From IMG/VR virus record IMGVR_UViG_3300029305_003884, positions 32,001-96,000 of that record: a stretch of 64,000 nucleotides of DNA. One strand, given 5' to 3'. This DNA comes from a virus (Duplodnaviria; Caudoviricetes). A model generated the notes under the pieces. It saw only the letters and a list, made by a program, of their open reading frames with translations, made no database searches and was not told where the DNA came from. How positions within the stretch are numbered: the first letter of the stretch is position 1; each line of letters starts with the position of its first letter. This document shows positions 22,224 through 33,751 of this stretch, piece after piece. Made by a program: the position numbers and the translations under genes.

Positions 22224-22252
22224 TTGACAAAAATTAAAACATTTTGTAACTT
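22224..22252 (+). promoter_or_regulatory. Sigma70-type promoter TTGACA-N17-TAACTT for tnpB
   Basis: Inside the IS left end, upstream of a structured leader. Confidence 0.55.
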
Positions 22253-22262
22253 ATATAAACAT

Positions 22263-22364
22263 ATAGGTAGAACAATGGATTACTGGCATTCTCTATTGTC
22301 CTATCGGTTCAAGATTTTGTGGCCTGTTGGGAAATTGAATGCCAGTTTAGTTCCCAACGGGCCA
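22263..22364 (+). ncRNA. Structured 5' leader: two hairpins with complementary loops
   Basis: Hairpins 22263-22304 and 22320-22364; loops ACTGGCATTC and GAATGCCAGT are exact reverse complements. Confidence 0.7.
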
Positions 22365-22373
22365 TTCTTGTAT

Positions 22374-23621
22374 ATGATAAGCAGGGCATACAAAATACGG
22401 TTGTATCCAACGGTAAAGCAGCAGAAGTTCTTTGCAAGAACTTTTGGTACATGCCGTTTCATCTACAACCGTGTGATTGCACTTAAATCCGCCTTGTACG
22501 AAGAAACCCGCATGTCGTTCACGCCAAAGCTTGCGTCATTCAAGGAAGAATGGCCTTGGATGCGGGAAGCCGACAGCCAAGGCATGGCTAACGTCTACAT
22601 GGATGCATTAAATGCATATCAGAAGTTCTTCGATGGTAAGTCTAAGTACCCGAAGTACAAGAAGAAATGCGATAAGCAATCATACCGAAATGCGATGATG
22701 CCTAAGACAATATCTAAGCTCATCCGTGGCACTAGAAATGACCGAATATTCATTCCGAAGGCGGGATTGGTGAAATTCCGTCAGGACTACGACTTCAAGT
22801 CGTTGCCAATCAAGAAGATATGCAGTTTAACCATATCCAAGTCGGCAACGGGGAAGTATTTCTGTTCGATAACCTGCGAAGTGGACGATACTTCGATGAA
22901 ACTGCCGCCGAATAAAAATGAAATCGGGTTTGACTTGGGAATCAAGGATTTCCTCATCGACTCCGATGGTTGCGTAATCGACAACCCGAAATATATGAAA
23001 CGGAGCGAAGTCAAGCTTGACAAGGCACAGCGCAGGCTGTCCCTGTGCAAGAAAGGTTCGAACAACTATCTGAAACAGAAGCATCGTGTCGCTCTGGTAC
23101 ACGAAAAAATAAGAAACCAGAGAATGGATTTCCTGCACAAGGTCAGCAAGATGCTAGTTGTAGAAAACCAATACATCTACTCCGAAGACCTGAAGCCGTC
23201 CAACATGTTGAAGAACCACCGCCTTGCAAAGGCTATCGCAGATGCGTCCTTCGGACGGTTCTGCAATATGGTTGCATACAAGGCCATGTGGTACGGTAGA
23301 TACTACTTCAAGGTAGGGTCATTCTACCCGTCAAGTAAGCTGTGCAATGTCTGTGGTTACAAGAACACCACACTGACGCTCGAAGACAGGGAATGGACCT
23401 GTCCTCACTGTGGTACATACCTTGACCGTGACCATAATGCCGCTATCAACATACTGAATGAAGGAAATCGTATACGTTTAAGTGGAGATACCGTACGGAC
23501 TGCGGAAGCCGATAAATCGACTATGCTCGTTGATACTGGTAAGATTACTTACCTTGAGCGAGAATCCTGTAACGCCACGGATGGACTCGGGGAAACCCAC
23601 CCATCTTTAGTGGGTGGGTAG
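22374..23621 (+). CDS. tnpB: RNA-guided endonuclease TnpB
   Basis: AYKIRLYPT N-terminus, RuvC-I GFDLG, RuvC-II SEDL, zinc finger CNVC/CPHC, RuvC-III DRDHNAAINI; start at ATG 22374. Confidence 0.95.
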   Translation: MISRAYKIRLYPTVKQQKFFARTFGTCRFIYNRVIALKSALYEETRMSFTPKLASFKEEWPWMREADSQGMANVYMDALNAYQKFFDGKSKYPKYKKKCDKQSYRNAMMPKTISKLIRGTRNDRIFIPKAGLVKFRQDYDFKSLPIKKICSLTISKSATGKYFCSITCEVDDTSMKLPPNKNEIGFDLGIKDFLIDSDGCVIDNPKYMKRSEVKLDKAQRRLSLCKKGSNNYLKQKHRVALVHEKIRNQRMDFLHKVSKMLVVENQYIYSEDLKPSNMLKNHRLAKAIADASFGRFCNMVAYKAMWYGRYYFKVGSFYPSSKLCNVCGYKNTTLTLEDREWTCPHCGTYLDRDHNAAINILNEGNRIRLSGDTVRTAEADKSTMLVDTGKITYLERESCNATDGLGETHPSLVGG

Positions 23622-30936: not shown

Positions 30937-31443
30937 TCAGTGTGTCAATTGACTAACTAACGCATCTACGTCAACGCAAGATGCGTTATATTTATTTATG
31001 TACACGCTGTTGAACAATTTCATCGTAACAGCATTCAACAGAATCGCCAATGCTTTCTTTTCATCGTCGCTCAGTTTGTACGACGACATCAACATGCAAT
31101 GCTGGTCCCGTCCACCTTTGTTGTTGAAGAGGGTGATATCAATGGGTTCGTCATCGCTTAACCCTACCTTTTCATACATGTGTTTGGCAATGGCGTTGCC
31201 TTTCTCGACAGTAAGGCAGTTCACATCAAACTGGTCCATCAACATTTCGAGCAGACGGCTTCCGACCCCCTGCCCACGTTCCGTTTCCTTGACGGAGAAG
31301 TCGCATAGGAAGTTGACATCGCCCGACTTGACAATCATGGCCTTGGCTACGCCAGATGCTCCCTCTTGCGAATAAGCTGGGTAGGCGACGACTCGATAGA
31401 CGTTTTCCATAGGCTGTTTGATAGATAATTTTAGGTCAAGCAT
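30937..31443 (-). CDS. GNAT-family acetyltransferase
   Basis: VKETERGQGVGSRLL and N..A..MYEKVG. Confidence 0.85.
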   Translation of the reverse strand: MLDLKLSIKQPMENVYRVVAYPAYSQEGASGVAKAMIVKSGDVNFLCDFSVKETERGQGVGSRLLEMLMDQFDVNCLTVEKGNAIAKHMYEKVGLSDDEPIDITLFNNKGGRDQHCMLMSSYKLSDDEKKALAILLNAVTMKLFNSVYINKYNASCVDVDALVSQLTH

Positions 31444-31969: not shown

Positions 31970-32431
31970 ATGGAAGTAGAACTGTATACCCCAGCAGAAG
32001 TGAAGGAACTTCTGTCCAACATGGAAACCATCAAGCGGTTCCCTATGATTTGTTACGACAAAGTCGAAAGCAACATAGAAGGAAAGACCGCTGCCGAAAT
32101 CATGAACGAGGCAAAGACCATGAACTACGACGGGGAATGGATGGTATTTCGTAGCATGGGTGTGGTGATTGGACTTGCCTGTGCGACCGTGGAAGACAAG
32201 ACTACACGCAACCTGTACCTGTATGACTTCGAGGTTGCGACTGATGCACAAGGAAACGGATTCTCAAACACGATGCTGGACTACGTGTACAAGTACGCAC
32301 GACAGCACGATTGCCAGTACATAACCCTGATGGCATTCGATGACAACGCTTTTGAATACTGGAAGCATCAGGGATTCAGGGTATCCCCAAAATCAAATAA
32401 CAACATCAGACTATTGTTCAAGAAACTCTAA
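31970..32431 (+). CDS. GNAT-family acetyltransferase
   Basis: FEVATDAQGNGFSNTML...A..YWKHQGF. Confidence 0.85.
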   Translation: MEVELYTPAEVKELLSNMETIKRFPMICYDKVESNIEGKTAAEIMNEAKTMNYDGEWMVFRSMGVVIGLACATVEDKTTRNLYLYDFEVATDAQGNGFSNTMLDYVYKYARQHDCQYITLMAFDDNAFEYWKHQGFRVSPKSNNNIRLLFKKL

Positions 32432-32468
32432 AACGAAAGGGACTCCCAGCGTCGACACTGAGAGTCCC
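32431..32468 (-). terminator. Intrinsic terminator
   Basis: GGGACUCUCAGUG-UCGA-CGCUGGGAGUCCC-UUUCGUUUU. Confidence 0.85.
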
Positions 32469-32685
32469 CATGCCATACATCCCATGGTGTTGGGTAACGG
32501 GATGGCGGCCAAGTCCTGTGGCGAAATGGCTTGCCTCCGTGCTACGGGTCACGGTCCCCGTCCGGCCATGTTTAACGAGCTGTTCCGAACTCAGCCTTTT
32601 CTGAGAATTCCTTACCGTTATAAGGAAAAGCATCAGATTCCTTTGCTCGGCGGCCTTCCAGGTACCAGCCTGAAAAACCTTCCAT
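32431..32685 (-). ncRNA. Putative structured non-coding RNA (~250 nt), family not recognised
   Basis: Own TTGACG-N17-TATAAT promoter, 3' terminator, six or more stems; G-U pairs work only on the minus strand. Confidence 0.7.
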
Positions 32686-32690
32686 CACAT

Positions 32691-32719
32691 ATTATAGAAA
32701 ATTTAAGTGGCTTCGTCAA
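32691..32719 (-). promoter_or_regulatory. Sigma70-type promoter TTGACG-N17-TATAAT
   Basis: Near-perfect consensus pointing into the intergenic region. Confidence 0.8.
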
Positions 32720-32951
32720 GACTTATGCCGAATTTTTCTGGATGACTGGTCGTTATCGTGAAGTATGCGGTGTGCCCACCATCTCCCGCACGAGGCATCT
32801 TCACATCTGTAGTGGCCTCTGGGTCGATTTTCTGGACGAGAGCCGAGGTTATCACCTGTAAATTCCGTTCGGTATTCGCCATCTCCTCATCTCGGCCAAT
32901 GGGGGTTCCGACATATTCATCCATCTTGTCATGAATATGCCTGAGCATCAT
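32703..32951 (-). CDS. Hypothetical protein
   Basis: 82-aa ORF at the end of the minus-strand operon. Confidence 0.55.
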   Translation of the reverse strand: MMLRHIHDKMDEYVGTPIGRDEEMANTERNLQVITSALVQKIDPEATTDVKMPRAGDGGHTAYFTITTSHPEKFGISLDEAT

Positions 32952-33721: not shown

Positions 33722-33751
33722 TTTTTTCTCCTTTGAAATTTGTATACTCGA

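Follow-up and report, generated by a model that had tools for sequence, protein, structure and literature searches.

The species 1 and 2 RNAs of bacteriophage T4 (the rnaC and rnaD RNAs) are small, stable, structured, non-coding and dispensable, and no role has been assigned to them; their genes are part of the tRNA cluster, and the RNAs are released from a tRNA precursor by processing. The pRNA of phage phi29 is another structured phage RNA, which is transcribed from an early promoter and acts as a folded RNA; it is essential, universal in its phage group, and multimerises on the portal via complementary loops. Outside these phage systems, 6S RNA, the CsrB/RsmZ-type sponges and the Y RNAs are abundant structured RNAs that sequester a protein. 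We have analysed a 64,000-nt stretch of viral DNA (Duplodnaviria; Caudoviricetes), positions 32,001 to 96,000 of IMG/VR record IMGVR_UViG_3300029305_003884, hereafter called the window, and we report on a minus-strand segment of about 255 nt that is predicted to encode a structured RNA. Judged by its pattern of sequence change, this is a real and well-delimited structured RNA gene that had not been described before, in a narrow clade of uncultured phages. We put at roughly 3 in 4 the probability that it is a stand-alone non-coding RNA gene whose product works through its fold. Structured RNAs that lack an assigned function offer a rare way into new biochemistry.

The phage RNA differs from each of the systems named above. 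It is knotted, roughly double the length of T4 species 1 and 2, served by a promoter and terminator of its own, and has no tRNA genes nearby; ARAGORN found no tRNA or tmRNA gene in the 64 kb. Compared with phi29 pRNA, it is located 19.5 kb from the portal gene and no conserved complementary loop pair was found in it. A pRNA-type element was rejected on the further ground that the RNA is absent from G002, a complete 419-kb sister genome, and from related loci, so that it is neither essential nor universal. Its likeness to 6S, CsrB and Y RNAs is limited to the mode of action that we propose below, as it has no long duplex with a central bubble, no repeated GGA, no Y-RNA-like stem and no match to these RNAs in Rfam. 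More generally, none of the Rfam 15 covariance models matched at the gathering score anywhere in the window. At E <= 10, the matches to the locus and to its divergent L044 variant were noise, consisting mostly of miRNA models on the terminator hairpin, together with 2 weak plus-strand matches. An earlier reading of the window from its sequence alone (the first-pass annotation) had seen no tRNA, tmRNA, RNase P, SRP or hammerhead signature at this locus, and had named the covariance-model comparison as a check; both ARAGORN and Rfam agree with it. By these comparisons the predicted product is an uncatalogued structured RNA without an Rfam family.

ARRPOF, ROOL, GOLLD, raiA and OLE, orphan RNAs linked to phages, plasmids and bacteria of the rumen or gut, are likewise stand-alone, intricately folded, pseudoknotted and non-coding, without an assigned function; ROOL and GOLLD have been found both in phages or prophages and in metagenomes from rumen or lake. 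The phage RNA, however, resembles none of them in sequence or by covariance model, is far shorter than ROOL, GOLLD and OLE, and is confined to one clade of T4-like jumbo phages. Also, unlike these RNAs, it has a consensus sigma-70 promoter and lies in an early-gene-like block. A large IMG/VR screen yielded 10,006 predicted, as yet unnamed structured RNA candidates (PMC10690425); the locus is unlikely to be among them, because IMG/VR holds only 3 copies of it.

Several other classes of RNA were considered and rejected. With regard to a TnpB guide RNA (omega RNA), the TnpB gene of the window is 9 kb away, G003 (a complete 422-kb relative) has the RNA without a TnpB gene, and G001 has a TnpB gene without the RNA; also, both ends of the RNA are locked in hairpins, unlike omega RNA with its free guide segment. 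With regard to a type III antitoxin RNA of the ToxI kind, the segment has no tandem repeats and no toxin family was matched among its neighbours. With regard to a retron- or DRT-type RNA, the flanking open reading frames (ORFs) contain no reverse transcriptase domain, and the next downstream gene is a convergent GNAT acetyltransferase gene.

Homologues and extent of the RNA gene

Homologues were gathered with the translation of a spurious 71-aa ORF that overlaps the RNA, with the protein encoded upstream, and by exact-pattern scans of IMG/VR and of JGI metagenomes. The resulting variant set comprises 16 distinct full-length sequences, aligned as A5, all of which come from one phage clade. The source record is 178 kb long, with a completeness estimate of 42%, and contains T4-like modules (portal, tail-sheath stabiliser, Dda-like helicase and gp46/47-like nuclease). 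Relatives of its portal gene are 91-99% identical, and 2 of these are in genomes of 419 and 422 kb that are complete and carry terminal repeats, which indicates that the RNA carriers belong to a clade of ~420-kb T4-like jumbo phages. To judge by the names of the samples, the clade comes from ruminant and gut metagenomes, and BLAST of the locus and of the RNA against a phage collection gave no DNA-level similarity to GenBank phages.

Exact 20-21-mers and a two-block pattern of the putative pseudoknot PK1 (see below) matched only G003 and one 27-kb contig in IMG/VR, and the exact-pattern scan of metagenomes matched 4 contigs. Two pattern scans of 185,579 bacterial and archaeal species genomes revealed no copy of the RNA, BLAST against plasmid and Escherichia coli genome collections gave no match to the locus or the RNA, and an earlier 40-mer scan also gave no match. 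Matches of 15 nt in G001, G002 and G004 were dismissed as chance, as they sit in an unrelated coding region.

The first-pass annotation had proposed a minus-strand promoter, TTGACG-N17-TATAAT, at 32719-32691, and a terminator with a U-tract at the other end of the segment, and both hold up. In a consensus scan, the promoter (-35 TTGACG at 32719-32714, 17-bp spacer, -10 TATAAT at 32696-32691) matches the sigma-70 consensus, TTGACA and TATAAT with 17 +/- 1 bp between them, at 11 of the 12 positions. Seven sites in the 178-kb record score at least 11 of 12, and the promoter of the RNA alone has a perfect TATAAT. In 12 copies of the locus neither the -10 box nor the spacer next to it varies; the -35 box, which falls within the last codons of the upstream ORF, begins TTGAC or TTGAT. 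As a separate observation, 4 of the 7 best sites are of the form TTGACA-N17-TATATT (window 37946, 44618 and 62898, minus strand; G000 101587, plus strand), and this form may be the phage's own early-promoter consensus.

The terminator hairpin extends from 32469 to 32438 on the minus strand, with a tail to 32430. It has 13-14 bp and a UCGA loop, and its tail, UUUCGUUUU (32438-32430), overlaps the stop codon of the convergent GNAT gene. With 14 pairs, of which 8 are G-C, a loop of 4 nt and a tail rich in U, it is predicted to be a Rho-independent terminator, and its G-U pairs fix its strand as the minus strand. Across the 16 variants its pairs covary (G-C with A-U at one position; C-G, U-G and U-A at another), and 2 pairs are compensatory. 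Transcription would start about 6-7 nt past the -10 box and end in the U-tract, giving a predicted transcript of ~255 nt from 32685 to 32431, on the basis of the promoter and terminator positions and of the edges of conservation.

These edges are sharp. In 6 relatives the RNA is 95-97% identical to the window, as compared with 75-78% for the upstream ORF and 77% for the GNAT gene, and the limits of high identity coincide with the -35 and -10 boxes on one side and with the terminator on the other. A stretch of ~70 nt within the RNA is nearly invariant, while the neighbouring genes differ by 22-25%. The segment between the near-consensus promoter of host type and the covarying terminator is thus far more conserved than what lies on either side of it. 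It is located between 2 convergent genes, GNAT on the plus strand and a small ORF of the p96 family on the minus strand. The GC content of the region, 55% as compared with 47.5% for the genome, also agrees with the earlier remark that it is GC-richer than other intergenic DNA of the window.

No terminator was found between the upstream ORF and the RNA, from which it follows that read-through transcripts should carry the RNA. The segment could accordingly be pictured as a cis element of the upstream operon, either a stabilising 3' untranslated region or a terminator and insulator between convergent genes. We consider this very unlikely: the invariant consensus -10 box and the conserved -35 box stand exactly at the 5' edge of the RNA, the 255 nt are more conserved than the ORF that they would serve, and a simple terminator would suffice as an insulator.

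The variants do not change evenly along the RNA. Indels of 1 and 2 nt occur at 6 places, all in the 5' two-thirds. In the lineage L044-46, the 5' 150 nt are ~25% diverged yet structure-preserving, while the 3' 115 nt, terminator included, do not differ from the window (RNA segment of L044-L047 at ~1806-2069, compared with window 32427-32688). The genes that flank the RNA in L044-46 are 83-91% identical to the window, as compared with 86.8% for the whole RNA, and some of the 5' states of this lineage are shared with L032. This pattern suggests recombination within the RNA gene, by which a variable 5' module would have been joined to a frozen 3' module.

Folding of the RNA

The 266-nt minus-strand stretch folds at -102 kcal/mol (z = -2.8 to -3.4), and in 4 variants the sense strand has an advantage of 9-14 kcal/mol over the antisense strand. 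Our structure model has 78 pairs, counted on alignment A5. In this model 98.2% of cells are paired and 5 pairs are changed on both sides; the covariation score is 0.104, as compared with 0.081 in shuffled alignments (0 of 500 reach the observed score) and with at most 0.037 when the partners are slid. One-sided changes yield G-U pairs on the minus strand only. These changes, together with the G-U pairs in the stems and the folding energies, bear out the minus-strand orientation that had been assigned to the RNA from its G-U pairs, and the paired changes in the 16 variants are the outcome of the test for covariation among homologues that the first-pass annotation had called for. An all-against-all covariation screen was not used to find new pairs, because linked changes of the L044-46 lineage swamped it and created many spurious column pairs.

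The first-pass annotation had also drawn a secondary structure, about one-third of which was wrong. Its 11-bp first stem is present. This 5' hairpin, P1 (32679-32652, minus strand), has 3 G-U pairs and a variable 6-nt loop, and its one-sided changes stay paired (G-C to G-U, A-U to G-U and U-G to U-A). In the L044 lineage, P1 is kept through a one-base register shift, as read by eye from the alignment, and 2 lineages have a mismatch in it. Next follows a long irregular hairpin, D2 (32642-32593, minus strand), composed of AG/CU, UCUGA/UCAGA and an apical stem, UUCCUUAU/GUAAGGAA (32627-32608), with variable internal loops that contain indels of 1-2 nt. The UUCCUUA/UAAGGAA hairpin seen earlier is confirmed. 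The CUCAG/CUGAG pairing drawn with it is broken in 4 lineages, and its place is taken by UCUGA/UCAGA (32637-32633 with 32604-32600), which shows a U-A to A-U swap at its base. The apical stem has 6 wobble-compatible changes and no breaks, including a position at which 3 pair types occur (U-A, U-G and C-G).

A helix that had not been drawn before, P3 (32590-32560, minus strand), is formed by GUUCGG (32590-32585) with CCGGAC (32565-32560), and it closes a 19-nt loop that contains the invariant sequence AACAGCUCGUUAAA. Every cell of P3 is paired across the variants; its changes are G-C to A-U, U-G to C-G and U-A to U-G in the L044 lineage and, independently, U-G to U-A in L043. The AUGGC/GCCAU domain of the earlier drawing fails: its third position is G, U or C without compensation, and the C of that pairing covaries instead with another base, in P3. 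Directly 3' of P3 is a putative H-type pseudoknot, PK2 (32559-32537, minus strand). An ACGGG/CCCGU pseudoknot had been proposed here, and its 3 central pairs are retained as stem 1 of PK2, GGG (32559-32557) with CCC (32548-32546), in which G-C changes to C-G, to U-G and to G-U in 2 lineages; its 2 outer positions belong to P3. Stem 2, CCGUG (32554-32550) with CACGG (32541-32537), is invariant in the 16 variants, so that PK2 as a whole is inferred. As far as comparison of variants can tell, P1, D2, P3 and the first stem of PK2 are shown to fold on the RNA strand. Two pairings at the energy minimum, CCGAGC/GUUCGG and GACGGG/CCCGUU, which appeared in the single-sequence fold and in the first RNAalifold fold, were rejected, as both are broken by the L044 lineage.

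A second pseudoknot, PK1, is likely. The proposed 5' strand, CGAGC (32649-32645, minus strand), can pair with GCUCG (32580-32576) of the P3 loop; both strands are invariant in the 16 variants, and covariation is for this reason silent on PK1 either way. The 3' domain (32535-32469, minus strand) is nearly invariant and is drawn as 2 hairpins, P5 (32535-32504; GGC/GCC, GCCA/UGGC and UC/GA) and P6 (32503-32469). The GCCA/UGGC pairing of the first-pass annotation thus persists with a different GCCA copy, the upstream one (32530-32527). The domain shows 2 wobble-compatible changes, C-G to U-G and G-C to G-U. CAUCCCG/UGGGAUG varies at one position, where a U to A change in L043 and L048 breaks the pair in either candidate fold.

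These substitutions bear also on the idea that the conserved entity is the DNA, such as a T4-type replication origin or a recombination hotspot. An origin of that type has a promoter and an unwinding element and is primed by an R-loop, which at oriF and oriG of T4 is driven by the promoter, and the locus does offer a strong promoter in highly conserved, non-coding DNA at a cassette boundary. We nevertheless give this idea very little credence: the substitutions keep strand-specific G-U pairing and compensate each other in helices, the GC content is above the genome mean, unlike that of an AT-rich unwinding element, and the locus is missing from the complete sister genome.

Coding potential

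Open frames do exist in the segment, namely the 71-aa ORF (32633-32418) and a 33-aa ORF with a TTG start (32512-32411). The last ~110 nt are open in all 3 sense frames, and some pipelines have called genes here (4 clusters, 68-98 aa), although in most contigs the gene callers leave a 272-nt gap empty. That the product is a small protein seems to us highly improbable. No reading frame with a shared start is intact in all 16 variants, and the RNA is unlikely to be coding because indels that are not multiples of three break every frame; starts and frames differ among the variants through the 1- and 2-nt indels, and the L044 lineage interrupts the 71-aa frame, which is therefore not conserved, in keeping with the non-coding status that the first-pass annotation had given the locus. 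Between the window and G003, every amino-acid difference in the 71-aa frame is non-synonymous, and the terminator substitutions track base pairing rather than codons. Across the homologues we found neither a conserved start and frame nor mostly synonymous change, and over the ~70-nt stretch all 3 codon positions are invariant. Also, no Shine-Dalgarno sequence is present at a usable distance, and neither Pfam nor PHROG gave a match. On the plus strand, the long ORF at 32340-32861 is broken in G003.

In the aggregate, conservation, frameshifting indels, covariation and the lack of an Rfam match sustain the central claim of the first-pass annotation, that the locus is a phage-encoded structured non-coding RNA with its own promoter and terminator.

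Occurrence in related phages

A covariance model of the RNA, R1, found one copy each in G000 and G003, whereas G001, G004 and the complete 419-kb G002 gave no match; among the large relatives, only G003 has the element. The RNA is also missing from 5 further IMG/VR loci that were reached via the GNAT gene, the G002 locus among them. In G001 and G002, homology to the window ends at the GNAT stop codon and resumes at 33748, and ~2.7 kb of unrelated small ORFs take the place of a variable cassette (33747-32443, minus strand) that comprises p102, p140, p96 and the RNA. The RNA gene is thus single-copy and optional among close relatives, and its natural presence or absence among near-identical 420-kb phages provides a ready genetic control. 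The RNA sits at the end of a leftward block that includes the dda-like helicase gene and a dihydrofolate reductase gene.

Possible functions

Early, abundant expression is suggested by the strong promoter of host type and by the location of the RNA gene, last in the block with the dda-like helicase and dihydrofolate reductase genes; the early timing is inferred from this arrangement. The hairpins at both ends indicate stability. Presence or absence in a swappable region indicates a host-interaction rather than a core function, and the near-invariance of ~70 nt, helical positions included, indicates sequence-specific recognition or dense tertiary packing. We tentatively combine these indications as follows. 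Host RNA polymerase would transcribe the RNA right after infection, and its structured 5' and 3' ends would keep it stable and abundant. The RNA would work as a fold, not as a message or a long antisense RNA, with the invariant 3' domain and the knot loops forming a sequence-specific binding surface. By this surface it would capture or titrate a conserved macromolecule, most likely a host protein or a defence or RNA-metabolism factor, and the variable, mosaic 5' two-thirds would be a scaffold or specificity module. The combination of a frozen region with a mosaic, fast-changing one suggests a conserved partner plus a variable module. That the product is an early, abundant folded RNA which binds or titrates a conserved, probably host, macromolecule is our preferred reading, held with well under even confidence, and the first-pass suggestion of a decoy for a host protein or defence system is a reasonable guess.

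A bolder form of the same idea is that the RNA is itself a counter-defence weapon, made in bulk within minutes of infection, whose frozen 3' domain and knots trap a host immune sensor, a nuclease or a signalling nucleotide, either directly or as a multimer. We think this unlikely; if it were true, the recombining, quickly changing 5' two-thirds would record an arms race, and the RNA would rank among the earliest known examples, in a lytic phage, of a folded anti-defence RNA that does not derive from CRISPR.

The RNA could also act alone, as a ribozyme, as a binder of a ligand or second messenger, or as the unit of an RNA-only multimer. Consistent with this are the multi-pseudoknot architecture, the near-invariance of ~70 nt even at helical positions that would tolerate compensation, and short palindromes in or near predicted loops (GGUACC at P1, GUCGAC at the terminator loop and CCAUGG at P6). 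Moreover, some phage-linked orphan RNAs self-assemble, and RNA-only dimers and cages have been described for ARRPOF, OLE, ROOL, GOLLD and manA RNAs (10.1101/2024.12.08.627333; 10.64898/2026.07.01.735769). However, Rfam gave no match to a ribozyme or riboswitch family, the L031 variant breaks GGUACC, and the terminator loop is only 4 nt long; self-action is in our judgement rather doubtful.

The promoter and terminator of its own would suit a classical small RNA that base-pairs in trans with host or phage mRNAs and silences or activates them, for which the invariant P3 loop and the P6 loop are possible seeds, and a terminator that abuts the GNAT stop codon would allow antisense action on the GNAT gene upon read-through. 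In the 178-kb record, a search that covers phage targets only, we found no antisense target of 14 nt or more; the longest complementarity is 13 nt, as compared with 12-18 nt in shuffled controls. Since, in addition, an RNA of 255 nt that is heavily paired is atypical of seed-type small RNAs, and the relatives that lack the RNA keep the GNAT gene, we regard base-pairing action as improbable.

Returning to the stand-alone folded RNA, and to the proposal that it titrates a partner, a number of observations weigh against them. The structure model was partly derived from the same sequences on which it was scored. Outside the terminator the double-sided changes come mostly from one lineage, L044-46, so that the independent covariation events are few. 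All variants derive from one narrow clade, and single-sequence folds of the variants are modest in stability (z of -1.6 to -3.4). In the 3' domain, only 6 of ~67 columns vary among the 16 variants, so that the fold drawn there is tentative. The cassette ORFs belong to no known family in Pfam, PHROG or PADLOC, and nothing points to a binding partner; no RNA-binding fold could be recognised in p96, which more distant phages encode with no RNA beside it. On the other side, the RNA is compact, its promoter-to-terminator boundaries are clean, and at least one knot stem is supported by covariation. If a partner or an activity were found, it would show to what end jumbo phages use accessory early RNAs; if none were found, the RNA would be one more orphan family of a narrow, uncultured clade.

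Neighbouring genes

The order of genes at the locus is constant: p149, p80, p102, p140, p96 and the RNA, followed by the convergent GNAT gene. The p96-family gene (32994-32703, minus strand) is always immediately 5' of the RNA. In the record, its ATG (32994-32992) is directly followed by a run of 7 A residues (32991-32985), where the close relative L039 has 6; this run shifts the frame of p96 and leaves an 82-aa ORF from an internal ATG (32951-32703). The run could be an assembly error, a recent frameshift or a site of slippage. No Pfam, PHROG or PADLOC family and no usable ESM Atlas match was found for p96. Its AlphaFold model (pLDDT 79) has 2 long helices and a small sheet, and Foldseek found no match to it in the PDB at E <= 0.001. 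On L055 (392-2800), a 78-kb contig of a distant phage, a p96 homologue is located two genes downstream of a TnpB gene and a PTH2-like ORF, with no RNA alongside.

The p140 protein, a predicted membrane protein, has no relatives in IMG/VR and is absent from G001 and G002; p102 has a paralogue of 55-61% identity elsewhere in both of these genomes. In L031, ~680 nt upstream of p96 (2059-2738) have no called gene and tblastn covers only residues 78-140 of p140, part of which seems to be missing there.

A TnpB-like gene of 465 aa (22224-23621, plus strand), with OrfB_IS605, Cas12f1-like TNB and HTH domains, lies among structural and replication genes of the window. The complete sister genomes G002 and G003 have no such gene, and in G001 a gene with 38% identity to it is found at another location.

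The convergent GNAT acetyltransferase gene (31970-32431, plus strand) was assigned by Pfam, and it is not tied to the RNA, because relatives that lack the RNA retain it. A second GNAT gene (30937-31443) lies within 1.5 kb on the opposite strand, with a 154-aa ORF between the two, and both GNAT genes are kept in the relatives without the RNA.

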